64,000 nucleotides of DNA from Meiothermus sp. (GTDB taxonomy: Bacteria > Deinococcota > Deinococci > Deinococcales > Thermaceae), in contig JANRLD010000025.1 in NCBI GenBank assembly GCA_033762915.1, positions 1-64,000 of the forward strand, in the 5' to 3' direction. The notes under the pieces are model-generated. The model was not told the DNA's origin. It was given only the letters and a program-made list of their open reading frames with translations, and did not search any database. The position numbers were made by a program, and so were the translations under genes. Below are positions 36,775 to 64,000 of the stretch, in pieces. Numbering within the stretch: position 1 is the first letter of the stretch; the number at the start of each line of letters is the position of its first letter.

Positions 36775-36942
36775 CGGGACCAGGAACGGGGATCAGCGAA
36801 CCAGCGATCAGCAATGCGCATCTGTTGCCCTCTTCTCCTTCTGATCCGCTGGCCCGTTCCGTTTTCACCGGTCACCCATCCGACTTCCCGTCTTAAGTTC
36901 TGTGTTGCCTGAATCCTGTTCCCCATTTCGCGGAGCGAAACC

Positions 36943-38220: not shown

Positions 38221-38317
38221 GCCGCGCCCACATTATGATTGGGGTCCGTGGCTTTGGTGCACTAAAGTACGCAGTGCATTTAGACTGGCCTCGTACTGGC
38301 CTGCGGGGCAGAGATTT

Positions 38318-39001: not shown

Positions 39002-39059
39002 GGCGGGTCTGGCTCCACTCTTGGCTCGTCACCCCATACAACCTCGAGACAACTATTGA

Positions 39060-39076
39060 AGAGTTATGATAACTCT
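39060..39076. promoter_or_regulatory. Perfect AT-rich palindrome, probable transcription-factor site upstream of the DUF11 operon
   Basis: AGAGTTAT-G-ATAACTCT. Confidence 0.55.
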
Positions 39077-39158
39077 ACGTCGTGCGTTACGTGTCCTTTT
39101 TACGTCCAGCGCAACTTTCTTTGCAGGTTATTACTGTAAGTGGTGCGTATAGCCGTAT

Positions 39159-39205
39159 TTGACAAGGTAATTTAGACGACCCGTTACGTGGTCGGTTGCT
39201 ACACT
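39159..39205 (+). promoter_or_regulatory. Candidate promoter elements of the DUF11 operon
   Basis: TTGACA at 39159-39164 and an extended -10 TGcTACACT at 39197-39205. The two are too far apart to form a single promoter. Confidence 0.35.
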
Positions 39206-39266
39206 CCTCAATCGTAGAGGCGTGAGTTTCGGCATGCTGTGCCGCTACGCCCGAGGAGGAGTGGGA

Positions 39267-39779
39267 ATGAAGTGGAGACAGCTTTGGATCATTGGTCTCA
39301 GCCTGGTGCTGGCCCTGGCATTTGCGCAGACCAGGGGGGCAGTGAAGCTCGACCTTCAGGCCTACCGGGTGCTGAGCGTGCAGGAAAACGGCAGGTCCGT
39401 TGAGAAGCTGGAGGAGGCCCTCGAGGTACGCCCCGGCCAACTCATCGAGTACCGCCTGGCCGCCCAGAACACCAGCCAGACCGCCCTGCGCCAGGTCAGC
39501 CTGGTCATCCCGATTCCCCGCACCACCGCCTACCAGGCCCTGAGTGCGGCTCCCCTGCGGCTTGGCCAGAGCCTGGTCGCGCCTCAGTTTAGTTTTGACG
39601 GTGGAAGCGTCTACGGCTTCCCGCCGCTAAAGCGCAAAGTAACTGTGATGGAAAACGGCAAGGAGGTTCAGCGCGAGGTTGAGGTGAAGCCCGAAGAGTA
39701 CACCCATGTTCGCTGGGTTCTGCCGCAGATGGCCACCCAGGAAAACGTCGTCTTGACGCTGCGGGCCACGGTTCGCTAA
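39267..39779 (+). CDS. Small secreted single truncated-DUF11 protein (putative chaperone/cap)
   Basis: GAGGAGG RBS, signal peptide ending AFA-Q, 'RPGQLIEYRLAAQN...VIPIP...HVRW...LTLRATVR*'. Confidence 0.8.
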   Translation: MKWRQLWIIGLSLVLALAFAQTRGAVKLDLQAYRVLSVQENGRSVEKLEEALEVRPGQLIEYRLAAQNTSQTALRQVSLVIPIPRTTAYQALSAAPLRLGQSLVAPQFSFDGGSVYGFPPLKRKVTVMENGKEVQREVEVKPEEYTHVRWVLPQMATQENVVLTLRATVR

Positions 39780-39830
39780 ACGAACCGCATTAGGCCCTAA
39801 GCCAACGCTGTCATTGGAGGAAATTCAACC

Positions 39831-42602
39831 ATGAAAAGAACCCTAAGTCTGTTGGTCGGCGCGGTGGCGCTTCTGGGCGTAGCCTTCGCCCAGCAAACCC
39901 CCGCCGGAACCAACATCTCCAACCAGGCCTCGGCCACCTATATCGACTCGGCCGGTCAGAACCAGAGCACCACTTCCAACCAAGTGTTGACCGTGGTGCA
40001 GCAGGTTTACAGCTTCACCATCACCCCCAACTCGGCCAGCACCAGCGAGCCCACCGGCGCCGCCGGCTTCGCCCAGAGCCGCAGCGCCCTTCCCGGTGCG
40101 CGCGTCTACTTCCCCTACACGGTCAACAATACAGGCAACGGCCCTGATACCATCAACCTGACCAGTGTACTCGGTACCGCCGGCGGCACCACCCCCGTTC
40201 GCTTCGTGCTCCAGACCCCCACCATCTACCGCGACACCAACTGTAACGGCTCGGTGGACGCCGGTGAGTCGGTGATCTCCTCGGTGGCCCTCACCCAAAA
40301 CGTCGGGGCACTGGCCGCAACCTCCTTGGCCTGCGTGATCATCGAGACCACCATCCCCAGCAGCGCCAATAACAACGAGGTCGGCAACATCAACCTCTCG
40401 GGGATCTCGGCCGGCAACAACTCGGTGACCGACACCAACAACTGGTCGCGGGCCATCGCCACCACCTCCGCCGCGCTGGACATCAACAAGAGCGCCAGCC
40501 CCAGCAACACGGCTTCGGCGGGCGGCACCATCTCCTACACCATCACCGGCCAGAATCGCGGCGGCAGCGCGGCCTCCGGCCTGACCACCATCCCCACCGG
40601 CCTGGGCAGCATCCCGGTTGCCAGCAGCACCGGCATCCTGATCTGGGACATCGTGCCCACTGGCCTGACCCTGACCGGCGCCCCCAGCGGCTCCTCGGGC
40701 GCGGGCACCGTCAACATCGTCTACTCGAGCGACGGCACCACCTGGACCTCGACCGCCCCGACCTTCGCCACCTGGGCCGGCGACGGCACCCGCCGCGTGG
40801 GCATGTGGATCACCGGCTCGGGCGCTTTCTTCCCCCAGGGGGCCTCGTACACCTTTAGCTTCACCACCAACGTGCCCGCAGGCGCGGCCTCGGGTACCAC
40901 GTACACCAACACTGCCAACCTGCAGTTCAACAACGGCGCCGACGTCGGTCCGGTCGCCTCGAACAGCACCTCCAACACCGTCGGCACCACCTTCGGCGTG
41001 GCCCTTGGCCCCAACGGTACCGCCACCGCTGCGGGCAACGGCGCGGTCGGCTCGGCCGACTCCCAGACCATCGCCTCGGCTTTCAGTGGCCAGACGGTGA
41101 CCTTCACCCAGACCCTGCAGAACACCGGCAATGCCTCTGACAGCTTCAACCTGTCCCTGGGCACCGGCGCGACCGCCCCCAACCTGGCCCCGCCCAGCGG
41201 CTGGTCCTGCCAGATCACCCAGATTGACGGCACCCCCATCAACACCGCCGTCGGGCCTTTTGCTGCCAACGCCACCTTCAACTTCCAGGTGCGCTGCGCC
41301 ATCCCCGCCAGCTACACCACCGCCACCGCGGTTAGCTTGAACGTGATCGCCACTTCGGTCGGCAACTCTGGCACCAGCGACCCCACCGCCGACACGGTCA
41401 GCGCGGTCAGCCTGGGCTACGCAGTCGACCTCGCCACCCGCGGCAACACCTCCAGGCCCGAGACCGCGGCCAACGACAACCCCGCCGGCCAGACCACCAA
41501 CCCCGCAACCACCGTCAGCTTCCCGCTGGACGTGCGCAACAACGGCGAGAACACTGACACCTACCAGCTCTCGGCCACCATCCCCTCTGGCTGGTCGGTG
41601 CAGTTCATCAACGATGCCAACAACAACGGCGTAGCCGACTCCGGCGAGGCCGTGGTCAACAACACCGGCCTGATGGCCAAGGACGCTGTCCGTAGCGTGA
41701 TCGCGGTGGTCACGGTGCCGGCCGGCACCAGCCCCGGCAGCAACAGCCTGACCTTTACCACCACCAGCGCCACCCTGGGCACGGTGAGCAACGCCGTCTC
41801 TACCACCATCACCGTCAACGAGGTCCGGGCCTTCGTATTCGACCCCGACCGCAGCGGTACCGTGACCAGCCCCGGCACCATCGTCTACACCCATAACCTG
41901 CGCAACAACGGCAACGCCAGCGCAACCGTGGCGATCCCCGCGCCCACCTTCCTCAACACCTCCCGCGGCTGGACCTACCAGTACTCCACCGACGGCGGCA
42001 CCACCTGGACCAGCACCGTCTCGGGCTTGGTCCTGGCCGCCAACGCCTCGGCCACCCTGCAGGTGCGGGTGATCGTGCCCGCCGGCGAGGCCATCGGGGT
42101 GAGCGAGACCGCCCAGATCACCGCCACCGCCACCTACGCCAGCAGTGCCACCGCAGCCCAGACCGTCAACGACACCACCACCATCGTGGCCGGCGACCTG
42201 ACCCTGGCCAAGACCGGCATCAGCTACGTGGGCAGCTCCGCCACCGTGCGCTCCGCCACCGCCGCCACCGCACTGCCCGGCGACCAGATCCTCTACACGG
42301 TGGTCGCGACCAACAACGGCGTGGGCAATCTGACCACCGTCAAGATCGCCGACCCGCTGCCCAGCTTCACCGACTTCGTCTCGGTTAGCGCCACTACCAC
42401 CATCTCGGGCGGTACCGTGGTCTACTCCACCGACGGCAACAACTGGACCACCACTGCCCCGACTACCCTCTCGGCAGGTCAGTCCATCTACGTAGCCGTC
42501 AACACCGCCGGCACCGCTGGCGGCGCGGGCAGCATCGACGCCAGCGACCTGATGGCTCCTGGCCGCACCATCACCATCACCTTCCGAGTGCAAGTCCGCT
42601 AA
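39831..42602 (+). CDS. Secreted multi-Ig/DUF11 protein, putative major filament (shaft) subunit
   Basis: GGAGG RBS, 20-aa signal peptide, T/A/S/G/N-rich beta repeats, N-terminal 'TPAGTNISNQASATY' and C-terminal truncated DUF11 ending 'TITFRVQVR*'. Confidence 0.85.
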   Translation: MKRTLSLLVGAVALLGVAFAQQTPAGTNISNQASATYIDSAGQNQSTTSNQVLTVVQQVYSFTITPNSASTSEPTGAAGFAQSRSALPGARVYFPYTVNNTGNGPDTINLTSVLGTAGGTTPVRFVLQTPTIYRDTNCNGSVDAGESVISSVALTQNVGALAATSLACVIIETTIPSSANNNEVGNINLSGISAGNNSVTDTNNWSRAIATTSAALDINKSASPSNTASAGGTISYTITGQNRGGSAASGLTTIPTGLGSIPVASSTGILIWDIVPTGLTLTGAPSGSSGAGTVNIVYSSDGTTWTSTAPTFATWAGDGTRRVGMWITGSGAFFPQGASYTFSFTTNVPAGAASGTTYTNTANLQFNNGADVGPVASNSTSNTVGTTFGVALGPNGTATAAGNGAVGSADSQTIASAFSGQTVTFTQTLQNTGNASDSFNLSLGTGATAPNLAPPSGWSCQITQIDGTPINTAVGPFAANATFNFQVRCAIPASYTTATAVSLNVIATSVGNSGTSDPTADTVSAVSLGYAVDLATRGNTSRPETAANDNPAGQTTNPATTVSFPLDVRNNGENTDTYQLSATIPSGWSVQFINDANNNGVADSGEAVVNNTGLMAKDAVRSVIAVVTVPAGTSPGSNSLTFTTTSATLGTVSNAVSTTITVNEVRAFVFDPDRSGTVTSPGTIVYTHNLRNNGNASATVAIPAPTFLNTSRGWTYQYSTDGGTTWTSTVSGLVLAANASATLQVRVIVPAGEAIGVSETAQITATATYASSATAAQTVNDTTTIVAGDLTLAKTGISYVGSSATVRSATAATALPGDQILYTVVATNNGVGNLTTVKIADPLPSFTDFVSVSATTTISGGTVVYSTDGNNWTTTAPTTLSAGQSIYVAVNTAGTAGGAGSIDASDLMAPGRTITITFRVQVR

Positions 42603-42611
42603 GCCCCATTT

Positions 42612-42639
42612 GTCCCCCTGGGCCTGTGCCCAGGGGGAC
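42612..42639 (+). terminator. Strong hairpin after the putative major subunit (attenuator or mRNA stabiliser)
   Basis: Perfect 12-bp stem GTCCCCCTGGGC-ctgt-GCCCAGGGGGAC. No U-tract on the + strand. Confidence 0.6.
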
Positions 42640-42773
42640 CCAAAAGTTCAACTGAGTTAGCTTGACTTCAGGATTCAACAGTTCAGCCACCCCTCGAGCC
42701 GAACTCAGTTAGTGGGACCCCCACCTAACCGCGTCGGCTCGAGTTTTTTTACCCTGAGAAGGAGGTGAGCGTT

Positions 42774-45509
42774 TTGACACCCGACAACCCCAATGCGCCC
42801 ACTTCCCTCGGGGCCCGCGCACAACATCGGACTTTCCTTTTCCCGCTGGCCCTTTTGCTGAGCTTCCTGGCCTGTTTTTGGCCCTCGGCCCTAGCCCAGA
42901 GCGCCCTGGCCGGCACCATCATCTCCAACCAGGCCCAAGTCTCCTTCGCCGAGTCTACCCAGCCCTACTTCTCCAACGTGGTGGAGACCCTGGTTCAGGC
43001 GGTCTGCGCGCCGACCATCACCCCCAACGGAACCCAGGGCAGCCCGGCCCAGCGGGCGGTGGTTTCGGCGGGCGGTTTCGCCTACTTCCCCTACCTGCTG
43101 CGCAATGCCGGCAACCAGCGCAGCACTTTCGCGCTGAGCTCGGCCCAGAACGCCGCCACCTGGGCCCCCCGTTGGGTCCGGTTGTACCTAGATCAAAACG
43201 AAGACTCGAGGCTCGACCCGGGGGAGCCCCAGGTCGCGAGCCTGTCCCTTGATGTGGGGGAGCAGCGCCGGCTGGTGATGGAGGTTGCCCTACCCGCCAA
43301 CGCCACCGGCGACCTGCTGGTCACCCCCACTGCCAGCTGCGTGACCGGCGAGCGCGACGACGACAACTTCAGCCAGATCAGCGTGGGAACCGGGCCCTCG
43401 CTCAACCTCACCAAGTCCACCAGCCGGACCACCCTCGACACCAACCAGGAAACCACCTTCGGGCTCCTGGTGGCCAACCTGGGCAGCACGCGGACGGGCG
43501 GGCCGGTCTCCGTCACCGACTGGCTCAACACCCCCGAACTGGCCGGGCTAAGCATTGTGCCCGGCTCGGCCGAGGCCACCAAGGGACGCCTGGAGTACAG
43601 CGCCGACGGGACCACCTGGAGTAGCCTCGAAGGCACCCAGGTCCTCGGGGTGCGCCTGGTGCTCGATGGCCTGGAGGCCGGCGAGCAGGCAGTCTTCAGC
43701 TTCCGCATGCGCCTGGGCGAGGGTAGCTCGAACGGCCTCCGGCGTAACCTGGCCACCGCCGAGGGTCCGGGCGGGCCAGCGGTGGCCGCCGTCGAGCTGA
43801 CGGTGGCCCCACGCTTCGCCCACCGGTTGGGGCCGCTGGGCCGGCCCGAGGCCAGCGGTGCCCAGGACCGCCAGAGCGGAACCGCCCGTGTCGGGCAGAG
43901 CTACTGCTTCTCACACAGCCTGATTAACCTGGGCAACGCCCCCGACCGCTACACCCTCGAGCTCGGCGTGCTGCCCCCAGGGATAACCGCCAGCTTCCGC
44001 CAGGGCAGCGGCCCGCTGGCCCAACCGATCCTGCTGGGCCAGGGCGAACGCAGTGACTTCCAACTCTGCCTAGGCGGCCTCGATCAGCAGACTCCCAGCT
44101 TCGAGGTCACCCTCAACGCGGTCTCCCAGACCACCGGGGCGGTCGACCCCACCTACGACATACTGGGTGTCACCTACGACCCGGCCAGCGTGCGGCTGCT
44201 CAAGAGCACCGACCGGGCCTCGGCGATGCCGGGAGAGTCGGTCAACTACACCCTGCAAATCAGCAACCCCTTCCCGGTCGCGATGACCAACCTGCGTGTC
44301 AGGGACCAGCTCGACGAGAGGCTGGAGTTCGTCGAAGCCTCTTCAGGCGGCAGCTTCGAACCGGCCAGCCGCGAGGTGGTCTGGACGGTGGGCAGCCTGG
44401 GGGTCGGCCAGACCCTCACCCTGAGCCTGCGGGTGCGGGTGGCCTCCACCACGAACGACGGCCAGATCCCCAACCGCTTCAGTCTCCGGGCCGATCAGTT
44501 CGACGACACCGCCACCTCCAACACGGTCAGTCTGCCTATCCTCACCAGCAGCATCCAGCTGCTCAAGAGGGTAACCCCTGCTCAGGCAGTGGTGGGCGAC
44601 ACCCTCACCTTCACGCTGACCCTACAGAACACCGGCAAGACCGACCTGGTCATCGAGGTGGTTGACACCCCCGGCAAAGGCCTGCGCTACGTGGAGCAGA
44701 GCGCCCAGCCCGCCGCCTCAGCCCAGCGCGGAGAGGGCCTGGTGTGGTCGGGCCTCGAGCTACCCGCCGGGGCCACCCGCAGCCTGAGCTACAAGATGCG
44801 GGTGTTGGCAGGGGCCCCGGAGCTGCTGGAGAACCGCGCGGTGGCCACTGGGGTCAACACCCAGGGGGTGGCGGTGGCGGCGGCCTCGGCGGCGGCCTCG
44901 GTCAAGCTGGACCGGGCGGTGTTCACGCCCATCAACATTCTGAGCGGCAGGGTCTTCCTCGATTCCGACCGCGATGGGCGCTATACGGCTGGTCTGGACA
45001 TCCCGCTACCAGGAGCCAGGCTGGTGCTGTCCAACGGGATGCAAACCCTCAGCGACAAGGACGGGCGCTACGCCTTTCGGGAGCTGCGGGGCGGGGCCTG
45101 GGAGATCTTCCTCGACCCGGCCTCAGCCCCCTTCAAGCCGCTCCCGCACCCCGAGCAGTTAGGTGAAGGCTACCGCCACAGGGTCACGGTCAACGGCCTG
45201 ACCAACTCCGACTTCCCCCTCGAGCGCCCCCTGGGCCAGGCGGTGGTGCAGCGCGAGACCACCCTCGAGTTCGGCCCGCTTAAGGTCTACAAGCGCCTGA
45301 TCGCCCTGCCGGCCGGGTTGCGGGTGGTCTTGGAGGTCAACAGCAGCGAGCCCATGAACGACCTCACCGTCTCCGACCCGGTGCCCGGCGGTGGGCTTCG
45401 GGAGTTCAAATTTGACAAGCTGGAAGGCCCACAGACCGTAACCTACGACTTGCCCATAACGCCCGGGTTCTACCTAACCGACCCGCAGGCCAGGTGGCGA
45501 TACCCATGA
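42774..45509 (+). CDS. Secreted DUF11/SdrD-B-like protein, putative base/adaptor subunit
   Basis: Signal peptide, 'ALAGTIISNQAQVSF', three complete DUF11 domains, and an SdrD-B-like 'GRVFLDSDRDG...PLPGARL...DKDGRYAF'. The GTG at 42765 lies inside a perfect SD (AAGGAGGTGA), so TTG 42774 is the likelier start. Confidence 0.85.
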   Translation: MTPDNPNAPTSLGARAQHRTFLFPLALLLSFLACFWPSALAQSALAGTIISNQAQVSFAESTQPYFSNVVETLVQAVCAPTITPNGTQGSPAQRAVVSAGGFAYFPYLLRNAGNQRSTFALSSAQNAATWAPRWVRLYLDQNEDSRLDPGEPQVASLSLDVGEQRRLVMEVALPANATGDLLVTPTASCVTGERDDDNFSQISVGTGPSLNLTKSTSRTTLDTNQETTFGLLVANLGSTRTGGPVSVTDWLNTPELAGLSIVPGSAEATKGRLEYSADGTTWSSLEGTQVLGVRLVLDGLEAGEQAVFSFRMRLGEGSSNGLRRNLATAEGPGGPAVAAVELTVAPRFAHRLGPLGRPEASGAQDRQSGTARVGQSYCFSHSLINLGNAPDRYTLELGVLPPGITASFRQGSGPLAQPILLGQGERSDFQLCLGGLDQQTPSFEVTLNAVSQTTGAVDPTYDILGVTYDPASVRLLKSTDRASAMPGESVNYTLQISNPFPVAMTNLRVRDQLDERLEFVEASSGGSFEPASREVVWTVGSLGVGQTLTLSLRVRVASTTNDGQIPNRFSLRADQFDDTATSNTVSLPILTSSIQLLKRVTPAQAVVGDTLTFTLTLQNTGKTDLVIEVVDTPGKGLRYVEQSAQPAASAQRGEGLVWSGLELPAGATRSLSYKMRVLAGAPELLENRAVATGVNTQGVAVAAASAAASVKLDRAVFTPINILSGRVFLDSDRDGRYTAGLDIPLPGARLVLSNGMQTLSDKDGRYAFRELRGGAWEIFLDPASAPFKPLPHPEQLGEGYRHRVTVNGLTNSDFPLERPLGQAVVQRETTLEFGPLKVYKRLIALPAGLRVVLEVNSSEPMNDLTVSDPVPGGGLREFKFDKLEGPQTVTYDLPITPGFYLTDPQARWRYP

Positions 45510-48500
45510 AACCAGGAACAGGGAACAGGGAACAGGGAACAGGGAGGAGAAGCTCTCGCGGTCTCTCTCTCCTGGTTCCTCTCCTTTCTTTCCTCGCCCT
45601 CCTGATGTTCGGCAGCGCGCTCGCGCAAGTCCGTACCGAACTCAAGGGGATCGTGCCCGGCAGTGAGCTGCGCTGGGAGATCACCGAACTGCGGGCCAGC
45701 ATCGTGGTCACCAAGCCGACCATTCTGAACCTGCAGATCTACTCCCCGGGCTTCGACCCCAAGGACTACCGCAGCGCCTTACAGGGCAAAAGCGAACTGG
45801 GCGATGAGCGCTACGATAAGGGCAAGGGGCCGATGCGCGCCAGCTTCGCCCTCAGCCGCGACGGGCGGGTGCTCGAGAACCGGGGCTACGGGGTGGAGCC
45901 GCACCGCTGGGTGCTGTTCTTCCGGGGACGGGTGGAACCGGGGGTGTACACGATTGCCAGCAGCCTCAAGGGGCTGGGCAAGAACGCCTTCCTCTACCGC
46001 ATCCAGACCAGCGTCCCCGAATCCGCCGAGCTGCTTGTGGATCCCACCCTTCAGCTCTACGACGTGCGCCGGAGCAGCGCGGTCTCGATCGGCACCATCC
46101 GTGGGCCGAACTGGGTGGAGCCCTTCACCCTCGAGGTGCTGCCGGGGGTGGGGCCGTTTAGGGTGGGCATCTACGACGAGGACGGCCCAAGCGAGATGCT
46201 GGGGCGGGTGCGGCTGCCCGGCCAGCAGGTGGTGCCGCGCCAGGTTGCCGGCGACCGACAGTGGAGCTACTTCAATGTAGCGACGCCCGGCATCTACCGC
46301 TTCGGCTTCGCGCAGGCCCCCACCTCCAGGCAGTACTCCAACACCATCGGGTTCCAGGTGAATGCCTGCATGCAGGTGCGCGGCGACCGCTTCGCGGTGC
46401 TTCCACCCAAGCCGGTTACGGCCAGTGTGGTGAACCAAGCGGGGCAGCGGCTCGAGTTCGCCCCCACGATCACCGGCGAGCAGATCCGCGAGGTCACGCT
46501 GCCCCCGCTGCCCGACGGCTACACCCTGCTGCGCATCGAGACCGAGGGCGGCGAGCCGCTGGCGGCCAACAAAGCCCGGCTGGGCTGCGCGGGCGGAAGC
46601 GTGCGCTTCGTGGTCGCGCTGCCCAAGGTGGCCGAGACGCCGGTCTCGCCGGAGCCCAGAGAGCCCGCCCTCACCGACCCCACGCCCGAGCCCGGCCAGC
46701 CCGAGATGGTGGCCCCCCCGGCCCCGGAGCCCATCGCGGTGGCTCCGCTCGAGCCGCTGGCTCCGCAGCCTGAGCCACAACCACAACCCCAGCCTGAGCC
46801 ACAACCACAACCCCAGCCTGAGCCACAACCACAACCCCAGCCTGAGCCACAACCACAACCCCAACCACAACCCCAGCCCCAGCCTGAACCCCAGCCCCAG
46901 CCCGAGCCGCAACCACAACCCCAACCGCAACCCCAGGTCGAGGTGGTCGCCCCCCCGGTCAAGAAAGGTCGCCTCGAGCTGACGGCCCGCCTGGTGCTTC
47001 CCACGGGTGAGCAGAGCGCCGAGATTGGGGTGCAGGTGGGCGACCAGACCGTCCGGCTCGAGGGCGGGGCGGCCTCGCTCGAGCTGACCCCCGGCAGCCT
47101 GACCCTGACTCCCCAAGTGCAGGGCGCGACAGTGGTCGGCCCCAGCACCGCCGAGGTGCTGGCAGACCAGACCGCCAGGGCCGAGTTTAGGGTCTACCCC
47201 AGCGTCCAGCTGACCCTGCACGCCGACAAAACCGTGCTGAAGATCGGCGAAGAGGCGGTACTGACCGCAACCGCCACAACCGCCTACGCTCGCCTGCTGC
47301 CCGCCAACCTCCAACTTGCCCTGCCTGCCTGCCTGGAGCCGCTCGAGACCCCCCGCCTAACCACCCCGATCTCCGCCGCCCGGCAGGGGGTGCTGCGTGT
47401 CCCGGTCCGTGCGGTCTGCCGGGGTGAGTTTCCTGTCCCGGCGACACTAACCCCCTGGGGCCAAGGGGCCAGTGTGAGCCTTAAGGTGCTGCAGCCACTG
47501 AGGTTTAGCCTGACCAAACAGGCCCTGACCCCCGCAGTCGCGGTAGGGGGCCAGGCAGTCTACCGGCTGACGGTCCAGAACATCAGCGACGAGGCCGGGC
47601 CGGTGACCCTGCGCGACCCCCTGGCCGTGGGCCTGCTGGGTGAGCCTCTCGAGCAAAGCCTGGTCCTCGAGCCGGGCCAGGAGCGCAGCATCGAGCTCAG
47701 CGCCCTGGTCGGCCCCGAGGCCCCGGCCCGCATCCAAAACCGGGCCCAGTTGGTGAACGCTGCCGGCGAGGTGCTGGCTGAGTCTGAGGCCGGGGTCGAG
47801 GTGCTGCGACCGGCGGCCGTGCTGGGCCGCACACTGGACAAGCGCGTGGTGGTCCCCGGCGAGACGGTGGAGGTCGGGCTGACCGTGGGCAACGACGGGC
47901 AGGCCAACCTCGAGTACAGCCTGAGCGACACCATACCCGAGTGGCTCGAAGTCTCGAACCCCCCCAGCTTCAGCGGGCAGCTGGCCCCGGGCCAGCGCGT
48001 GACCCACCGCTACACTGCCACGGTGCGCTTCGGCTCGGGGGCCGAGGGACAGTTTGAGGCCCAACTGCGCTCCAACGGCGGCGACCCCACCGCCACCGAC
48101 ACCCTGCGGCGGGTGCTGGTACCCCTAAGCAAGCGGGCCACGCCCGAGCGGGTGGTGTTGGGGAACGACGCGGCCTTTGAAATCGAGTTCACCAACCCCA
48201 CCGACCACCCTTTGAGCCTGGAGTTGATGGAAGCACCCGACCCCGATCTGGGGATGGATATCCCTGGGGAACTTCGGTACGAGCTGGCCCCCGGAGAGAC
48301 ACAGCGCTTGACCCTTCCGGCTAAGCCCAAGCGGGTGGGGCCCCTGGAGAACCAGGTCACGGCCTTCGTGGGCGGCGCCCCGGCCTCCTTTCCCACCAAG
48401 GCCACCCTCATGGTAATGCCGGTACTGGAGGTGCAGCGCTACTCCCTGGTAACCCTCGAGTTCAGCGCACAGGGGCAGGGCGAGCGACTTCTTCTGACCC

Positions 48501-51412: not shown

Positions 51413-51457
51413 ACCCCAAGCACTCCCATTGCCTCGCGAATTCAACCGCAGAAACCT

Positions 51458-54328: not shown

Positions 54329-54549
54329 CCCACGCCCTCTCGAGGCCCAACCCCATGGCCTGAAGCGCGTTATCTGGCTTTGTGATCAACCTACTATTGA
54401 GCGGTCCAAATAACCACGACCAAGCCCGTCTAGCACGTAAATTTAGTGTGGATGTCGACGATTTCGACCACACGTACGGCTCTTTCAGCTTCAACATTAC
54501 CTCAAGTGCCGTCTGGTAGCCGGCTCGAGCCCGGAGGAGCGCCGCCACG

Positions 54550-57500: not shown

Positions 57501-58512
57501 ACCCGGCATCGGCGGGGTGACCGTCTCGGCGGTGGGGGCCACCACCCGCACCGCCAGCACCGACGCCAGCGGCGGTTTTAGCCTGCTGATCCCCAGCGGC
57601 TTTGGCAATTTCACCCTCTCCCAGCCCCAGGGTCCTGCCACCGGCTCTAACGTCGGCGGCACCGCGGTTCAGCTGGCCGCCGGCTACAACAGCGCGGTGG
57701 CCCGTCAGCGAGCCGTAACCGCCCTACCCAACGGCTCGAGCAACTCGGGCTACAACTTCGGGGTGGTATGGGCCTCGGAGCTCCGCCCCGACCAGAGCGG
57801 CCAGGCCACCAGCCCCGGTGTCGCCGCCTATCGCCACACCTTCCGCCCCGGCACGCTCGGCAGTGCAAGCCTGACCGTCAGCGGCGCCTTCACTTACCAG
57901 ATCCGCCGCGCCGCTGGATGCACCGCCCTGGCACCCTCCGACGCCCTGCGGCCCGTGCCCCTCTCCCTGGTCGTCGACTCCACCTGGCCCCGCGACCCCG
58001 ACGGCCGCCTCAGCGCCTGCGAGCTCGAGCTGCTGGTCCTGGTCCCCGCCGGCCGGCCCGGCGGCTCCGTCGACATCGCCCAGCTTTCGGCGTCCCTAAC
58101 CTGGGCCGGCAACGCAAGCGTGACCGACCAGCGCACCGCGACCGACACCACCACCGTCGCCGCGACGGGCGCTCTGCGCTTGAGCAAGGTGGTGCGCAAC
58201 GTCACCCAGAACATTCCCGCTGCTGGCGCATATGCCACCAACGTCGCTGGCCGCCCCGGCGACACCCTCGAGTACTGCATCGCCTTCCGCAACTCCGGCG
58301 CCGCTGCCGTCAGCAGCGCCGTCCTCACTGACCCCATCCCCTTCTTCACCAACTACGCCCCGGGCACCCTCCGCCTCGACTCCGCACCGCTCACCGATAC
58401 CGCCGACGCCGACACCGGCGAGCTGGTGGGCACCCTCTACGTTCTGGTTCGCCTCGGCACCCTGACCGCAGGCCAGACCGGACAGGTCTGCTACCGCGTC
58501 ACCATCCGCTGA
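54550..58512 (+). CDS. Putative tip adhesin 2: lectin/jelly-roll-like head + SdrD-B + DUF11 stalk + C-terminal truncated DUF11
   Basis: GGAGGAG RBS, signal peptide, 'MFINAA...FYEQT...GGGGNDLAIDNLQF' head, three complete DUF11 domains; ends 'QVCYRVTIR*'. Confidence 0.82.
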   Translation: MMPKTAGGWPGLAVGLVLIALTGLSGPASAQATNFCANAGGTRSANLFALDGTFGTAPAGTQAPTLTSSTNPTPTVTPLRYAMSTVPGVTGGLDAQGRPIGTTTYALNNRSTVNFPGNYSPEDGEYEITNSSYSRQDGAWHRFIGGRNTGNERDLFMFINAAVAAGVFYEQTLTVTPNTNFEFSISIINLIANNSSIVPNVNLEIDRLGVDDNNNGTVDESGEAQTIVLTGNIPNSNTPIWRDYGGVINSGASNRITVRFRNNAPGGGGNDLAIDNLQFTSCTGLSTGNISGRVYLDQNANNTSDAGEPGYGPNVAVSLIGKDQNLNDFIVATAQTAADGSYSFVNVPAGTYTVAVPQNEPQLNQANPRNPSTTAVINSVTYVTRPSTVVGLGTSLTNQNFGFGPAPISLQKTANANSSTDAIGSVITAAAVGNTFQYTLRVTNNTGTNLSSTSLRLMDALPAGLTYVTGSLQMALVTTGSPTFSSVNDGGSYPFTEPSGRLLGRNVGTSTSSFNNGNLNSGETLIVRFRVTVASGPPPQISNQGRITYTISSVSRNVLSDDPNVAGFADPAVVVVGANLTVSKVADLASVSPGSTLRYTITLVNNGALPTTALTLQDPLPAGLTYVPNSAEAAIGSTPASFTPLNASSYPFATARTMGNNVSSGGFNNNTLAVGETLTVRFRVTVADTATGLGQATSLSNQASTVFNYTGGSPTTVPSDDPAFGGPSDPTITPVQYPDLTIQKTAAATFWQGNNSSYTLTVSNTAGSPASLGTVSVTDVLDASLNYVSAGGSGWSCAYTAATRTVACTRSDALSGGSAYPGITLTVVPTAAGPVPNTAGVANGADNNSANNTSTLSLSVQATYTLSGNVFADANANGLREGGEAGLAGVTVALGGAAARTALTDSSGNYAFTFLIPGSYTLTQTDLPGYISITPNLLGVSLGNADLGNQNFADFLGYRLSGTVFRDDGRGGGTANNALQDGGEPGIGGVTVSAVGATTRTASTDASGGFSLLIPSGFGNFTLSQPQGPATGSNVGGTAVQLAAGYNSAVARQRAVTALPNGSSNSGYNFGVVWASELRPDQSGQATSPGVAAYRHTFRPGTLGSASLTVSGAFTYQIRRAAGCTALAPSDALRPVPLSLVVDSTWPRDPDGRLSACELELLVLVPAGRPGGSVDIAQLSASLTWAGNASVTDQRTATDTTTVAATGALRLSKVVRNVTQNIPAAGAYATNVAGRPGDTLEYCIAFRNSGAAAVSSAVLTDPIPFFTNYAPGTLRLDSAPLTDTADADTGELVGTLYVLVRLGTLTAGQTGQVCYRVTIR

Positions 58513-58526
58513 GTTGCGCGACAGTG

Positions 58527-58593
58527 ACAGCGGTTCCCACCATTACCCCGCACATCCGAGTCTCTGCGTGCGGGGTATTCGTGGGACCGCTGT
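58527..58593. repeat. MITE/REP-like palindromic element, copy 3
   Basis: ACAGCGGTTCCCACCATTACCCCGCAC ... GTGCGGGGTATTCGTGGGACCGCTGT, an imperfect 26-27-bp stem just after the stop codon. Confidence 0.75.
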
Positions 58594-58781
58594 GAGTTTG
58601 CGAAACCCTCCACGCGACCTCGGCAGCGAGCAGCCTGCAGGCGCAATTCTCTATAGGCTACCGGCCGAGATTTCGCATCTCGACCATGGAGACACTTATA
58701 CACCCTCGAGCAAGACTCACAGCCCGAGACACCGGCGTTAAGGATCGGAATCCCAGCAAGCCACAAATAACCAATAATTGA

Positions 58782-58849
58782 AATGTATCCCAGTTACATT
58801 AGGCTCAATGTTTTACTTTGTAGATCAGTCACATTTTAGCTACCATAAT
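58782..58849 (+). promoter_or_regulatory. AT-rich promoter region with two TGTA-N7-YACA sites
   Basis: AATGTA-tcccagt-TACATT (58782-58800) and TTTGTA-gatcagt-CACATT (58817-58835), followed by TACCATAAT. Confidence 0.5.
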
Positions 58850-58977
58850 ACTTTGGAAACGGATTCCGTAGGCCCAAGGCTCAAGTCCAATTCGCCGGCC
58901 CGTGCTGAGGGTCGCAGAGCGCACGCACCAGCCCGGTTAGAACGGAGCCTCCGGCGCGCCAAACGGGTAGGGCATCC

Positions 58978-61900
58978 GTGATACCAAGCGACTTCTTGAA
59001 GAAGCTAGGGGTCGCCCTGTGTACCTTACTGTGTGCCCTGCTGGGCTCGGAGGCCCTCGCACTCAGCCCGGGCAGCATCACGGCCGTCATGACCACCGAC
59101 AACCTGCTCACCTCGGACTCCAACAACTGTTCCGGAGGGGCTGGGCCTCGAGCGGCCTACGTGGGCTTCCGCTTCACTAACACCTCCGGCTCCGCCCTGC
59201 GCGACGTCCGGGTCACGCTGGGCGCGTTCGCCGCCGGCTTCGGACTCAACAACGGGCAGGCCGCCACCCTGACCATCGGTAGCCTGGCGGCCGGGGCCAG
59301 CGACGTGCTGTACTGGCACATCTTCTACCCGTGCCACACCGCCTCCCCCAACAGCAACACCCTAACCCTGACCCTCAGCGACTCCAACCCCGGAACCGTG
59401 ACCATCAACACCGGCACCACCATAACCTCGACCAGTAGCCTCAGCGCCAACGCTGGCGGCCAGATCAACACCACCACCCTGGGGCCGGGAGCAGTGTTGG
59501 GCCAGGTCATCACCTACGATGTCACCTATAACTTCGGCCAAACCTCCGTCGGCGACCGCTTCAATCTCCAACCCGCAGGGAACACGTCTTACAACGCGGG
59601 CTGCTTTCAGTTGGTCAACTCGAGGATCACCTCCTCCAACGTGCCCGCCATCACGACAGGCACAGCCGATCAACTGCTATTCGTGGCAGGCGCGGGGCAG
59701 AACACCGGCGGCGGGCAGACCAACCTGGTTACCGTGCGCTACTTCATCAAGTACCTCTGCGCCAACACTTCCACCACCTCCGCACCCTACGCGTCGCAGA
59801 CCAGCGGCGGCCAGCTCAAGTACAGCGGCAACTTCGGCGGCGCCGCAACCCTGATGAACTTCCCCGGAGCGACCAACTCGGTGAGCATCTCCAAGAGCGC
59901 CGACTTCTCGGTGGTCCCCGCCGGCGCCGCCGTCACCTACACCGTCACCCTCACCAACTCCTCGGCCAGCTTCCCAACCTACGTCGACCAGATCACCGAT
60001 GTTTTGCCCAGCGGGGCCACCTTCGGCAGCATCCAGAGCAGCAGCGACGTGACCGCCGCCAACTCCAATCAAGTCCCGCAGACTGGGAGCAGCGGCACCC
60101 TGAGCTTCATCGGCCAGCCCTTCACCGTCAGCGCGGGTGGCACAGTGAGCGGGTCGTACCTGATCCCGCCAACCAGCTCGATCCGGCTGATCTACACCGT
60201 CAACCTCTCCACCACTCCCGGCACTTACGCCAACTCCGCCACCGCCACCATAGGCACCGTCACCACGCCGCCCGCCAGCATCAGCGTTCAGGTGGTGACG
60301 ATGGCCCTGACATTGACCAAGACCGCAGTGACCCGGGCCTACATTGGCGACACGGTCACCTACACCTACACCCTCACCAACACCACCACCAGCGGCGCCC
60401 CCAACCTCACCCTGTCTTCCATCACCGACCCACTGCTGGGCACCCTGAGCCCGCCCGCCAGTTGCACCACCCTGGCCCCCGGCGCCTCCTGCAGCTTCAC
60501 CCAGACCTACCCGGTGACCTCTTCCACCCCCGACCCCTTCACCACCACGGCCACCGCCACCTACACCTTCACCCCCACCGGCACCCCCAGCAGCGCCAGC
60601 GCCAGCGCCACCCACGTCCTCGACGTGCTAAAGCCCGACCTCACCATCTCCAACGTGGCTAGCGGCTCCTTCGCCCGGGGCTCCACCGGCACCTACACCC
60701 TCACCGCCACCAACCTCTCGGCCGACCCCACCACCGGCACGGTCACGGTGAGCGGCACCCTGCCCGCCGGCCTCACCCCCACCTCGGCCACCGGCACTGG
60801 CTGGAGTTGCACCATCTCCGGCCAGACCGTGACCTGCACCCGCTCCGACGCCCTATCCGGCGCGGCCTATCCGCCCATCACCGTGAACGTGAACGTAGCC
60901 CAGTCGGCGGCCACACCGCTCTCCTTCACCGCCACGGTCTCCGGTGGGGCTGACACCAACAGCACCAACAACAGCGCCACGGTGAACAGCACCATCTCCA
61001 CCGTGGCCGACCTGTCCGTGACCAAGACCGACGGAGTGAGCGTGGTGGCGGCGGGCAGCACGGTCAGCTACACCATCACAGCAGCCAACAACGGCCCTTC
61101 CAACCTCATTGGGGCGACCCTCACTGACACCCTGCCCGCCAGCCTGACCGGGGCCACCTGGACCTGCGCGGCCTCGAGCGGCTCCTCCTGCCCCGCCTCT
61201 GGGTCGGGCAACATCGTCGCCAGCCTCAGCCTACTCTCTGGCGGCACCGCCACCTTCACCCTCAACGCCACCCTCTCGGCCTCGGCCACCGGCAGCGTGG
61301 CTAACACCGCCACCGTGGCCGTACCCGGCGGGGCCACCGACCCCAACTCCTCTAACAACTCCTCCACCGACACCAACTCCATCGTCCCCGCGGTGGACCT
61401 GGCCATCACCAAGACCGCGGGCGCTTCCACGGCCGTCCCCGGCTCCACCCTGACCTACACCCTGGTGGCCCGCAATAACGGCCCCAACCCGGTCACCGGG
61501 GCCACCCTCACCGACACCCTGCCGTCCGGTGTCACCGGCGGGAGCTGGACCTGCGCGGCCTCGAGCGGCTCCTCCTGCCCCGCCTCCGGGTCGGGCAACA
61601 TCGCCGCCAACGTCAGCCTGCTCTCCGGCGGCACCGCAACCTTCAGCCTGGTGGTCACTGTCTCGCCCGCCGCCACCGGCACCCTCAGCAACACCGCCGG
61701 CATCAGCGCCCCCCTCACGGTCGCCGACACCAACCTCTCCAACAACTCCTCCACCGTCACCACCACCCTCACCCCCAGCGTCAACCTGAGCCTCAGCAAA
61801 ACCGACGGCAAGACCACCACCCTGCGCGGCGACCTCAACACCTACACCATCACCGTGAGCAACAGCGGCCCCTCCAACCTGGTCGGGGCCACCGTCACAG

Positions 61901-64000
61901 ACGCCCTGCCGTCCGGCCTGACCGGCGGGAGCTGGACCTGCACCGCCCCCAGCGGCGGCTCTTGCACCGCCTCGGGGAGCGGCAACATCTCCGACACGGT
62001 GAACATCCCGGCCGGCGGCAGCCTCACCTACAGCCTGAGCGCGACCGTGGGCGCGGGCGCGAGCGGCACCCTGAGCAACACCGTAAGCGTGTCGGTGCCC
62101 TTGAGCACCACCAATACCGGTGCCTCGAGCGCCACCGACACCACCAGCGTCCTGACCTACACCGTGACCAAGGCGGTCAGCTCGACCACCCCGGTCCTGC
62201 CGGGCACCACCCTCACCTACACCATTCAGATCACCAACACCAGCCTGGTCGCGATCAGCGGGGCCGCCTTTACCGACGCCCTGCCCGCCGGGACGGCCTA
62301 CTACCCCCTCAGCGCCAGCCTCAACGGCGGCAGCGCCTTCGGGACCACCTACCCCTTCGCCAGCGCCTACCCGGTCAACAGCGCGGGCCAGAGCAGCGGC
62401 GTCATCGCGGCGGGCGCCACCACGACGATCAGCTTCAAGGTGGTGGTGAACAGCAGCAGCCCGCCGGCCTCGGTCTCCAACCAGGGCTATTTCACCTTCA
62501 CCGGCGGGCCCTCCGGCGGTGCCCCCACCGACGACCCCACCACCCCCGCCGCCAACGACCCCACCCTGAGCACCGTGACGGCCCCCCCGGGCTACTTCAT
62601 CAACTATGAGGACGGCACGGTCGGAAGCTACAACTGCACCACCAACGTCGGCATGGACGTGGGGGGCTTGACCAGCACCGGGGCCGCCTTCGGGCGCTCC
62701 CAGGCCAACCCGCCGCTCAACGGGCTGTACCACTTGGTCAGCGACGACCTGAGCAGCGCCTCGCTCAACGCCTACACCGAGACCCCCTGGCTCCTGTTCG
62801 GCGGGGGCAACCTGATCGAGTTCAGGCACAAGATCAGCAACCTCTCCACCACAAACGCCCGGATAGTGATTTCCCTAGTCGAGGCGGGCACCGGCCTCGA
62901 GACGGTCCTGCTGACCTACACCTACGTCGCCGGGGACGCCAACGTCTCGAGGTTCGTCTCGCAGAACACCAGCGTGACCGGGGTCTACAAGGTCCGCATC
63001 CGCTTCCTGGGGACCCCAGGCTCGGGCAGCGCCAGGGGCGCGGTGGACGACATCAACACCGACGCCACCCAGGCCACCGCCGGCGTGGGAACCGCCGCCT
63101 CGCCCGCCTCCGGCTCGGCCTGTAACTACCGCCTCGACCCCCGGGTTGTGAAGACCGGCCCCGCCACCGCCACCACCACCCAGACCGTCACCTACACCAT
63201 CACCGCCACCAACGGCGGCCCCGCCACCTTCCAGGGAACCCTCACCGACGCCGTCCCCGCCGGCTTCACGGCCGTAACCTGGGTCTGCACCGCCGCCGGA
63301 GACGCCGACTGCGACACCGCCGCCGCTGGGACCGGGGCCTCCGGCTCGGGCAACAGCATCAGCCTGACGGCGGTACGCATCCGGCCGGGGTCGGGCAACT
63401 CGGTCACCCTCACCGTGACCGCCACCGCCGCCACCGCCGGGACCGTCGTCAATACCGCCCTTCTGACTCTGCCGGGCGGGGCCACCGACGACCTCAACCC
63501 CGCCGACAACACCTCCTCGGTCACCACGGTCATCTCCCTGCTGGGGGTGACGGTCTCGGGACGGGTCTACGCGGACCTCCAACCCAACGGCACGCTCGAC
63601 GGCGGCGAGGACTGGAGCAGCGGGGTCGCAGTGCGGGTCAACCTGGTCCAAGGCACGACCGTGGTGCAGAGTGTCGCGGTGGGGGCAGGGGGCGGCAACT
63701 TCTCCTTCAGCGCGGTGGTGGCAGGATCCTACCAGCTCATCGTCACCACGGGCGCGGGCGCCACAACTGCCGCCGCGCCCGCCGGCTGGATCTTCATCCA
63801 ACCCCAGTCCGGCAGCCTGAGCCTGAGCGTGGCCACGGCCGACCTGAGCGGCCAGAACCTGGGGCTCTACAACGGCTCGAGGCTCACCGGCACCGTCTTC
63901 CGCGACGACGCCCTGGGCGGGGGTACGGCTAACAACTCGCTGCAAGACGGGGGCGAGGTGGGAATGGGGGGCGTCACGGTCACCGCCAGCGACGGCACCA
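58978..64000 (+). CDS. Putative tip adhesin 3 (>1674 aa, 3'-truncated by the window, absent from the ORF track)
   Basis: Frame +1 from GTG 58978: 'IPSDFLKKLGVALCTLLCALLGSEALA' signal peptide, many DUF11 domains, and at the window end the shared module 'RLTGTVFRDD.LGGGTANNSLQDGGE.G.GGVTVTA'. Confidence 0.88.
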   Translation, partial: MIPSDFLKKLGVALCTLLCALLGSEALALSPGSITAVMTTDNLLTSDSNNCSGGAGPRAAYVGFRFTNTSGSALRDVRVTLGAFAAGFGLNNGQAATLTIGSLAAGASDVLYWHIFYPCHTASPNSNTLTLTLSDSNPGTVTINTGTTITSTSSLSANAGGQINTTTLGPGAVLGQVITYDVTYNFGQTSVGDRFNLQPAGNTSYNAGCFQLVNSRITSSNVPAITTGTADQLLFVAGAGQNTGGGQTNLVTVRYFIKYLCANTSTTSAPYASQTSGGQLKYSGNFGGAATLMNFPGATNSVSISKSADFSVVPAGAAVTYTVTLTNSSASFPTYVDQITDVLPSGATFGSIQSSSDVTAANSNQVPQTGSSGTLSFIGQPFTVSAGGTVSGSYLIPPTSSIRLIYTVNLSTTPGTYANSATATIGTVTTPPASISVQVVTMALTLTKTAVTRAYIGDTVTYTYTLTNTTTSGAPNLTLSSITDPLLGTLSPPASCTTLAPGASCSFTQTYPVTSSTPDPFTTTATATYTFTPTGTPSSASASATHVLDVLKPDLTISNVASGSFARGSTGTYTLTATNLSADPTTGTVTVSGTLPAGLTPTSATGTGWSCTISGQTVTCTRSDALSGAAYPPITVNVNVAQSAATPLSFTATVSGGADTNSTNNSATVNSTISTVADLSVTKTDGVSVVAAGSTVSYTITAANNGPSNLIGATLTDTLPASLTGATWTCAASSGSSCPASGSGNIVASLSLLSGGTATFTLNATLSASATGSVANTATVAVPGGATDPNSSNNSSTDTNSIVPAVDLAITKTAGASTAVPGSTLTYTLVARNNGPNPVTGATLTDTLPSGVTGGSWTCAASSGSSCPASGSGNIAANVSLLSGGTATFSLVVTVSPAATGTLSNTAGISAPLTVADTNLSNNSSTVTTTLTPSVNLSLSKTDGKTTTLRGDLNTYTITVSNSGPSNLVGATVTDALPSGLTGGSWTCTAPSGGSCTASGSGNISDTVNIPAGGSLTYSLSATVGAGASGTLSNTVSVSVPLSTTNTGASSATDTTSVLTYTVTKAVSSTTPVLPGTTLTYTIQITNTSLVAISGAAFTDALPAGTAYYPLSASLNGGSAFGTTYPFASAYPVNSAGQSSGVIAAGATTTISFKVVVNSSSPPASVSNQGYFTFTGGPSGGAPTDDPTTPAANDPTLSTVTAPPGYFINYEDGTVGSYNCTTNVGMDVGGLTSTGAAFGRSQANPPLNGLYHLVSDDLSSASLNAYTETPWLLFGGGNLIEFRHKISNLSTTNARIVISLVEAGTGLETVLLTYTYVAGDANVSRFVSQNTSVTGVYKVRIRFLGTPGSGSARGAVDDINTDATQATAGVGTAASPASGSACNYRLDPRVVKTGPATATTTQTVTYTITATNGGPATFQGTLTDAVPAGFTAVTWVCTAAGDADCDTAAAGTGASGSGNSISLTAVRIRPGSGNSVTLTVTATAATAGTVVNTALLTLPGGATDDLNPADNTSSVTTVISLLGVTVSGRVYADLQPNGTLDGGEDWSSGVAVRVNLVQGTTVVQSVAVGAGGGNFSFSAVVAGSYQLIVTTGAGATTAAAPAGWIFIQPQSGSLSLSVATADLSGQNLGLYNGSRLTGTVFRDDALGGGTANNSLQDGGEVGMGGVTVTASDGT

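Follow-up and report, generated by a model that had tools for sequence, protein, structure and literature searches.

Immunoglobulin-like (Ig-like) pilins polymerise by donor-strand complementation in chaperone-usher and type V pili. In the engineered SpyTag/SpyCatcher pair, which is a split CnaB2 domain, a peptide carrying one residue of the triad bonds spontaneously. A 2026 preprint is said to describe a chaperone-guided donor-strand pilus in Enterococcus, built from other protein families, and to our knowledge the known pili of outer-membrane bacteria are non-covalent and need dedicated chaperones or ATPases. Here we describe a locus of seven genes, numbered g1 to g7, in a Meiothermus sp. 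genome (GenBank assembly GCA_033762915.1, 5.4 Mb, about 67% G+C), in which the DUF11 domain, now called CLIPPER, is divided between separate proteins. The window analysed is the first 64 kb of the 76.5-kb contig JANRLD010000025.1. A preliminary description of this window had seen seven co-oriented signal-peptide genes, and proposed them as a candidate pilus class consisting of a chaperone, shaft, base, barrel and interchangeable tips. The seven co-oriented genes are borne out by the open reading frame (ORF) calls, with the signal peptides, apparently of Sec type, judged by eye alone; all lie on the forward strand.

The name CLIPPER was given to the DUF11 domain in 2025 (Costa et al. 2025, PMC12617251). 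As set out in sections 2.3 and 2.4 of that paper, the crystal structure 9IFR shows Lys715 and Asn806 of one molecule joined by an isopeptide bond, Asp748 lying close by, and a Lys-to-Ala variant is reported to lose thermal and protease resistance. In the parts of the literature consulted, CLIPPER appears only as a former of intramolecular bonds. A locked joint between subunits is described in a preprint on BsaA, a TasA-family protein of Clostridium perfringens, under the name 'donor-strand exchange and lock'; mutation of its triad abolished the oligomers (bioRxiv 10.1101/2024.11.04.621531).

A CLIPPER domain divided between proteins

Complete internal CLIPPER domains are present in g3, g6 and g7. 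Their alignment gives an L.I.K strand, a.D.LP turn and an F.V.V strand, followed by two further strands, G..I.N.A and SN....V, just as the preliminary description had read them. A profile made from eight complete domains of the window was compared with the solved structures, and it finds 9IFR with an E value of 4.7e-8, the next match being at E 0.16; the eight-domain profile is needed for this, a single window domain (searched with phmmer) giving no match. The Pfam family DUF11 (PF01345, cut-off 24.6 bits) scores 32.9 bits for g2, 122.1 for g3 (E 1.8e-35), 24.8 for g4 (E 2.9e-5), 94.9 for g6 and 267.4 for g7 (E 1.5e-80, in seven stretches). For g5, the C-terminal piece scanned alone gives 17.8 bits, under the cut-off, and the NCBIfam model TIGR01451 gives 26.5 bits (cut-off 24). 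There is no Pfam DUF11 match for g1, which scores 17.4 bits with TIGR01451, below the cut-off.

In five of the seven proteins the C-terminal domain stops early. One of them is g2 (39831..42602), the candidate connector or shaft, a protein of 923 aa with about eight Ig-like domains, the last of which (42192..42599, residues ~788-923) covers positions 7-82 of the 114 in the DUF11 profile (E 1.1e-7), whereupon the protein ends; FRVQVR is its final strand. In g5 and g6 the terminal domain matches positions 12-84 (E 0.0042) and 10-83 (E 0.02) of the same profile, respectively, both below the curated cut-off, and these proteins also end there. The same early stop is seen with the DUF7507 profile, where the terminal domains cover positions 9-79 of 105. 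Altogether the terminal domains of g1, g2, g5, g6 and g7 stop about 30 profile positions early and the strand with the Asn is absent in cis, so that all five fall short of the full CnaA-like domain, which has nine strands and unites Lys, Asp and Asn in a single chain. The early stop had previously been noticed in four proteins; g7, read past the end of the window, ends YRVTIR* in the same way as g6, and the number of truncated ends is therefore five. The xxRxxxR motif that had been taken as the mark of these ends is not conserved; in homologues the end is V.V plus one of Q, R, K or N.

The two missing strands stand at the beginning of g2 and g3, 3-5 residues past the predicted cleavage site, as the preliminary description had it, and on none of the other secreted proteins of the locus. 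The signal peptides end ...ALAQ or ...FAQ, without a lipobox Cys, as read from the sequence. In g2 the two-strand hairpin occupies 39891..40007 (residues 21-59, TPAGTNISNQASATY...TSNQVLTVV), and in g3 it occupies 42897..43001 (residues ~45-79, SALAGTIISNQAQVSF...FSNVVETLV). The gene g3 (42765..45509) is a 914-aa ORF starting from GTG, with the mature N-terminus near residue 45. We call the hairpins donors and the truncated C-terminal domains acceptors. The split itself is real and far beyond chance. Among the 4045 ORFs of the genome, a pattern for the C-terminal acceptor (Lys...DP[LIV]P...end) matches only g2, g5, g6 and g7, and a pattern for the two-strand donor matches g2, g3 and a single ORF unrelated to them; since both patterns were built from the very proteins that they retrieve, they demonstrate specificity and not an independent discovery. 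The lone further match (C16, 176 aa) was considered as a third donor and rejected on reading its sequence. When the genome was searched at the protein level, the tip module turned up exactly three times and a donor-bearing N-terminus exactly twice, always in this locus.

The split also divides the residues needed for the isopeptide bond. In the alignment of the window-domain profile with 9IFR, L.I.K holds the Lys,.D.LP holds the Asp, and G..I.N.A, the earlier of the two missing strands, holds the Asn. Lys and Asp consequently stay together in the C-terminal piece, and the Asn goes with the hairpin at the N-terminus. Among 61 g2 homologues in the alignment, N31 and N50 of the donor and K794 of the acceptor are invariant and D841 of the acceptor is at least 90% conserved, while an internal domain of g2 keeps the invariant K220, D273 and N360 in the same three motifs in cis. 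Across 21 loci, the Lys is present in 21/21 and the Asp in 20/21 of the g2 acceptors; for the tips, the Lys is found in 23/23 and the Asp motif in 22/23. The layout expected of a split isopeptide domain, with Lys and acid on one partner and Asn on the other, is thus present and conserved. The preliminary description was right that the N-terminal peptides are the missing strands, but it overlooked the split triad. Since the split separates the Lys-Asp-Asn triad, the link is likely to be covalent, and nearer to those of SpyTag/SpyCatcher, BsaA and the archaeal threads discussed below than to plain donor-strand complementation. Judged from the position of these residues, we consider a Lys-Asn bond at the joint to be probable.

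The fit of donor to acceptor was predicted for g2, using residues 780-923 and residues 21-62, both cut from the protein's own 61-row alignment. Three runs gave interaction prediction scores from aligned errors (ipSAE) of 0.90, 0.91 and 0.90, the best of three controls giving 0.00. This mark is attained by 116 of 157 solved complexes and by 2 of 215 mismatched pairs, counts that hold only roughly here because the alignment was supplied. The runs share at least 93% of their contacts, and the predicted local distance difference test (pLDDT) score of the partners is at least 86. The strand leading to D841 (acceptor residues 834-841) is paired with residues 29-40 of the donor, and the strand carrying K794 (788-796) with residues 47-59; the donor residues at the interface are 21-23, 27, 29-40, 45 and 47-59. 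The fit that the preliminary description had expected between the C-terminal domain and the N-terminal peptide of g2 is therefore predicted, and computation supports the identification of the N-terminal peptides with the strands that the C-terminal domains lack. As g1, g5, g6 and g7 have an acceptor without a donor, and g3 has a donor without an acceptor, these can be completed only in trans, and trans-complementation among these proteins is in our opinion very probable.

The arrangement is widely conserved. The search with g2 gave 193 homologues at E <=1e-5, and the 120 that were listed come from Meiothermus, Calidithermus, Thermus and metagenome records. The donor motif is found in the first 80 residues of 116/120, the four misses being near variants, and all of those listed end on the same strand except P0110, which has 8 extra residues. 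The donor is the best-conserved stretch of g2, the identity being otherwise 43-72% across the listed homologues. Among 68 genomes of the family, a homologue of g1 is found in 48, of g3 in 48 and of g4 in 49. Twenty Thermaceae loci, picked for having a g1 match and mostly on long contigs, were fetched, and the order g1-g2-g3-g4-tip is seen in all 20. The distribution of donors and acceptors is conserved, g2 carrying both, g3 a donor only, and g5, g6 and g7 an acceptor only.

Beyond the family, 258/301 sampled Deinococcota genomes have a g1 homologue (257/300 leaving out G258, which is flagged as unpublished), and 8/10 Deinococcus-type loci keep the order of the genes, their g1-g2-g3-g4 having donors and acceptors at the same ends. 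In one Deinococcus-type locus (L024) g2 is undetected in a gap of 2.4 kb, and in another (L030) the place of g2 and g3 is taken by a 1416-aa protein, which consists of a head and a C-terminal half like that of g3. Damaged or shortened genes are also found in five of the fetched loci: g2 lies in two ORFs interrupted by about 1 kb in L004 (1073-4991), g4 lies in three ORFs with masked bases in L005 (4139-12868), g4 is short in L007, and g3 is short in L010 and L011. The locus is decaying or rearranged in some relatives, as seen in L004, L005 and L030. As a separate observation, the DUF11 domain-containing protein DR_0685 of Deinococcus radiodurans was detected by proteomics, according to a table of proteins of altered abundance in PMC8779699.

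Putative tips, base, barrel and small acceptor

The three proteins that we call tips have a C-terminal module of about 490 residues in common (58-64% identity), beneath different heads. The first, g5 (51458..54328, 956 aa), has a head with choice-of-anchor L (choice_anch_L, E 2.1e-54), GEVED and SdrD_B domains, and its acceptor reads LRLEK ... LTDPIP ... YRVTVR*. The second, g6 (54550..58512, 1320 aa), has another head, with three CLIPPER domains and SdrD_B, followed by the same C-terminal module and an acceptor ending YRVTIR*. The third, g7 (58978..64000 in the window, the ORF continuing to contig position 64971), has 1997 aa, with seven CLIPPER stretches and the same C-terminal module and acceptor. 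Over 588 aligned positions g5 and g6 are 58% identical, and g7 is 62-64% identical to both over about 500 aligned positions.

With a donor only and two complete CLIPPER domains, g3 is the candidate base or terminator. Its orthologues in 20 loci start [TA]PAGTVIRNQA...YLSN, the short form in L011 reading VVENQA. It ends here ...DPQARWRYP (45480-45509); Thermaceae loci have ...DP[QE][VA]RWRYP at this end and Deinococcus-type loci have ...SWRY or WRY, and this conserved aromatic end may be a contact with g4. The reading frames of g3 and g4 overlap, by 16 nt here, and an overlap is found in most of the fetched loci.

The next protein, g4 (45494..51412), is a predicted outer-membrane giant of 1972 aa, which runs from an N-terminal domain through a PQ-repeat linker and CLIPPER-like Ig domains to a C-terminal barrel (49361..51409, residues ~1290-1972 in the structure model). 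Family searches match it to Porin_4 (E 2.2e-7). The last 830 residues were modelled from a 19-row alignment (pLDDT 77.7); the model has about 32 long strands in antiparallel order, and a further four precede an insertion. The preliminary description had called g4 a beta-barrel protein, and the model agrees, predicting a very large barrel at the C-terminus. Foldseek was used to compare this barrel with known structures; it returned generic LptD, FimD/PapC, MtrB and Deinococcus SlpA barrels, with template modelling (TM) scores of at most 0.32 among the matches listed, and no family was assigned. Modelling thus supports g4 being a giant outer-membrane barrel. By analogy with ushers it might also have a role in export. 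We consider that g4 fairly probably serves as an anchor, and that its serving as a passage is a more doubtful proposal. The linker, at residues ~395-480 (46676-46934), is of (PEPQPQPQ)n type and lies between the conserved N-terminal domain and the Ig-like domains; matches to g4 in other genomes break at this point. A look-up of the N-terminal domain in the ESM Atlas gave a best score of 0.88, below the useful range.

A pair of paralogues of g3 and g4 is found elsewhere in the same genome, on contig C88 (5199-15298 of the fetched locus, minus strand). A protein of 1280 aa is followed there by a g4-like giant of 2086 aa. The 1280-aa protein carries a tip-like head; its C-terminal region resembles g3 (29% identity to residues 587-879 of g3), and its end reads ...TDPDLFWDEVTP. 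There is no g1 or g2 with this pair and no donor N-terminus, the head, stalk and base forming a single chain. The base-plus-barrel module therefore exists on its own, which suggests that the split system is a fibrillar adhesin that has become modular. We note separately that contig C39 of this genome (6482-11209 of the fetched locus, minus strand) encodes a protein in which four DUF11 domains are strongly matched and the C-terminus (...FYLRLDWLFDERFFGVR) resembles the barrel end of g4; at least 1575 aa long, it runs into the contig end.

The small protein g1 (39267..39779, 170 aa) is a secreted single-domain CLIPPER-like acceptor, which stops after the same strand as the other acceptors but has IPIP in place of DPLP, and neither Lys nor Asp at the triad sites. 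None of its orthologues in 21 loci has the triad Lys or Asp, and likewise none of 30 aligned sequences. It is nevertheless a strongly conserved single domain, with 15 positions invariant in the 30 sequences, and matches no Pfam or NCBIfam family above cut-off. The preliminary description had made it the chaperone. In the chaperone-usher sense this does not apply, as g1 offers a groove and not a strand and is without the bond-forming Lys and Asp; a PapD-like role was likewise rejected, g1 being acceptor-shaped and without a donor strand. From its residues, g1 would take a donor only non-covalently, and we propose tentatively that it is a donor-holding factor. Small proteins resembling g1, with the signature SxDGG...YTHxRW, are also found in Gemmatimonadota, in Nostoc/Scytonema/Phormidium cyanobacteria, in Steroidobacteraceae and other Gammaproteobacteria, and in one Helicobacteraceae metagenome-assembled genome (loci L094-L113). 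By eye, those of Gemmatimonadota keep the Asp (FVDPIP), the Lys being seemingly absent.

The seven genes sit between a gene for an OmpR-type response regulator (38318-39001) and a convergent gene for a dihydrouridine synthase, and housekeeping genes make up the flanks. From 35500 to 39001 there are two tandem genes of the glutamate/leucine dehydrogenase family and then the response regulator, directly upstream of g1 and with no histidine kinase adjoining. A scan of 39000-58999 for promoters and terminators found no promoter-like site, and 10 terminator-like sites where 11.0 were expected, and is uninformative on operon structure. A search of sequencing runs listed no RNA run for the locus, and DNA runs with a small share only. 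The assembly is large, at 5.4 Mb compared with 2.4-3.9 Mb for 25 other genomes of the genus, with an estimated contamination of 0.51%.

Proposed assembly and its alternatives

Taking together what was computed, namely the split, its conservation, the distribution of the triad and the predicted fit of donor to acceptor, we infer filament formation, a covalent bond, polymerisation of g2, a contact between g3 and g4, export and a role for g1, as follows. Sec export and cleavage of the signal peptide would free the N-terminal hairpin of g2 and g3, which would then slot into the C-terminal sandwich left open by its neighbour on the distal side, this being either a tip (g5, g6 or g7) or another g2. 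Insertion would rebuild a CnaA-like domain, in which the donor Asn (N31 in g2) would be placed beside the acceptor Lys and Asp (K794 and D841 in g2), and a spontaneous isopeptide bond between Lys and Asn would probably lock the joint. The order along the chain would be tip, one or more copies of g2, and g3, which would end the chain because it has a donor without an acceptor. The giant barrel of g4 would hold g3 at the cell, and could possibly provide a passage as well; the overlapping reading frames of the two genes and the paralogous pair on C88 speak for a link between them. Meanwhile g1 would bind the donor reversibly, either as a cap against premature pairing or as a minimal non-covalent tip.

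On balance we favour the view that the locus encodes a modular surface fibre, joined by trans-complementation of a split CLIPPER domain. Whether g2 forms a homopolymer within this fibre is an even question. The parts list given previously is thus largely right in its logic, whereas the polymerising shaft, the export platform and the pilus are retained here only as proposals. A larger claim would be that the locus represents a new class of pilus, found in Deinococcota and in related diderm operons, with self-ligating CLIPPER domains, whose autocatalytic Lys-Asn bond would make each joint permanent, and no sortase, with g1 as a chaperone that mimics an acceptor and retains the donor strands reversibly before handover, and with the barrel of g4, of 32 or more strands, as both usher-like passage and root; we regard this as conceivable but somewhat doubtful.

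A number of points weigh against a fibre locked in trans. Some of them concern the split itself. Section 2.3 of PMC12617251 describes CLIPPER_2 domains as more compact, typically with seven strands, and a short terminal domain is therefore in itself no proof of incompleteness. On their own, the two donor peptides of 42 residues have no Pfam match at E values up to 10, and match the small in-window profile weakly (E 0.083); the Pfam result says nothing either way, because the peptides are too short. In the triad, one g2 orthologue (L017) has Ala in place of the Asp, and there are two candidates for the bonding Asn, these being N31, by homology, and N50. Others concern the complex prediction. 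The predictor may just have recognised two halves of a familiar fold, and a pass indicates complementarity, and not binding in the cell; close cousins of a true partner pass too. The score also does not separate a g2-g2 joint from a g2-tip or a g3-g2 joint. As a single alignment of one set of proteins supplied both chains, the co-variation might be intramolecular. Finally, in the AlphaFold2 model of full-length g2 (pLDDT 87.6, predicted TM score 0.51, about eight β-sandwich domains) the N-terminal strands have a pLDDT of 86-93 and are docked somewhere.

The alternative that survives best is a three-part adhesin, in which exactly one g2 links one tip to one g3, the heads being swappable and there being no homopolymeric shaft. 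Most of the fetched loci have only one tip gene in the 20 kb retrieved, the eight or so domains of g2 already make a rod, and the C88 paralogue places head, stalk and base in a single chain beside a g4-like barrel; the complex score, as noted, does not distinguish the joint of g2 with itself from those with tip or g3. Set against this, the donor and acceptor of g2 are predicted to fit each other and nothing visible bars g2 from adding to itself, and its donor is the most conserved stretch of the protein. We therefore give the three-part adhesin a minor but appreciable chance of being correct.

Much less likely is the view that these are ordinary separate surface proteins, whose terminal domains are complete with seven strands and whose N-terminal motif is a signal for sorting or maturation. 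Both the seven strands typical of CLIPPER_2 and the failure of the donor peptides alone to match any family would fit this. It is difficult to reconcile, however, with terminal domains that keep the Lys and Asp, the Asn being absent in cis and invariant in the N-terminal peptides, and that stop early even when compared with DUF7507 (9-79 of 105). Moreover the motif is on g2 and g3 only, though all seven proteins are secreted, and the complex prediction gives 0.90 against 0.00. Least likely of all is that the g2 hairpin completes its own C-terminal domain, as a ring or circular permutation, the other proteins being independent adhesins: this would agree with the confident N-terminal strands of the monomer model and with co-variation within one protein, which does not separate cis from trans, but we give it very little weight, given that cis completion is impossible for the acceptor-only g1, g5, g6 and g7 and the donor-only g3 throughout the family, and that the donor continues directly into strand one of domain 1 in the manner of a tandem repeat, so that the rod of about eight domains would presumably have to bend into a ring.

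Comparison with known systems

The view in the preliminary description that this type of locus is uncharacterised agrees with full-text searches of the literature, subscription-only papers aside, which found no description of split DUF11/CLIPPER fibres or of the locus. The words 'split', 'truncated', 'Thermus' and 'Deinococc' are absent from the searched text of PMC12617251, and CLIPPER and DUF11 are absent from the examined portion of a late-2026 review of bacterial surfaces. The 'DUF11' of the tafi paper (PMC11821415) is DUF1102, and is irrelevant to the CLIPPER family. The logic of a fibre complemented by strands and locked by isopeptide bonds is known, and it is the machinery for this in diderm bacteria that is undescribed.

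The closest relative at the level of the domain is CLIPPER itself (9IFR). It belongs to the same family and has the Lys, Asp and Asn at the same positions, and complete copies form the stalks of g3, g6 and g7. In the CLIPPER paper the bond lies within one chain, whereas here the terminal copy is divided between two proteins and the bond would be interchain.

In its general plan the locus resembles the chaperone-usher pili (type 1 and P pili, with FimA/PapA, FimH/PapG, PapH, FimC/PapD and FimD/PapC). In those pili an extension at the N-terminus completes the Ig-like fold of the neighbour on the distal side, as is predicted here; in both, only an acceptor is present on the adhesin tip (here the putative one), the terminator has a donor and is unable to accept, and the operon includes a large outer-membrane barrel. 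The differences are that two strands would be donated here and not one, that the joint is probably covalent, that g1 presents a groove and not a strand, and that the barrel of g4 is larger and only generically like FimD/PapC (TM at most 0.32). The earlier statement that PapC, PapD and sortase are missing holds for the Pfam and NCBIfam scans of the seven proteins and 16 flanking ORFs, the rest of the genome not having been searched. Sortase-assembled pili are likewise covalent chains of Ig-like pilins with tip, shaft and base, but no LPXTG motif or membrane anchor is found at the C-termini here, where the chain stops as soon as a beta-strand is complete, and no sortase domain in the locus or its flanks, genome-wide searching aside. 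The type V pili of Bacteroidota (FimA/Mfa) are made from lipoprotein precursors that lose an N-terminal strand by proteolysis, and their donor strands are C-terminal; they differ in that, as read from the sequence, there is no lipobox Cys here and the donor is N-terminal.

BsaA provides a parallel for the proposed joint, since an N-terminal segment enters the sheet of the neighbouring subunit and an Asn-Lys isopeptide bond with a catalytic acid locks it in place. The preprint describes a TasA-like fold with an N-E-K triad, in a single-subunit matrix fibre of a Gram-positive bacterium, with no tips, base or outer-membrane barrel. Operons for fibres of the TasA/BsaA type include a SipW-type signal peptidase; no TasA or Peptidase_M73 match and no signal-peptidase gene is found in the locus and 16 flanking ORFs. 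The thread of Sulfolobus acidocaldarius (Saci_0406, PMC9715654) is similar in its head-to-tail donor-strand complementation, its proposed intermolecular isopeptide bonds, its thermophilic host and the lack of a known sortase. It differs in that Asn57 is joined to the N-terminal amino group of subunit n+2, in having no Pfam domain, and in belonging to an archaeal envelope without an outer-membrane component.

Should the proposed assembly prove to be true, it would add a class of pilus and give a function to many proteins annotated as 'DUF11 domain-containing'. The system is apparent in nearly all sampled Deinococcota, and it may help to explain the firm attachment and biofilm formation of Thermus, Meiothermus and Deinococcus. 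The donors and acceptors would also be a source of thermostable and mutually specific pairs for peptide-domain ligation in protein engineering. Here the comparison is with SpyTag/SpyCatcher, which is man-made and which the present system would resemble in that a peptide reconstitutes an isopeptide domain; the locus would be its natural counterpart, assembling surface fibres in outer-membrane bacteria.

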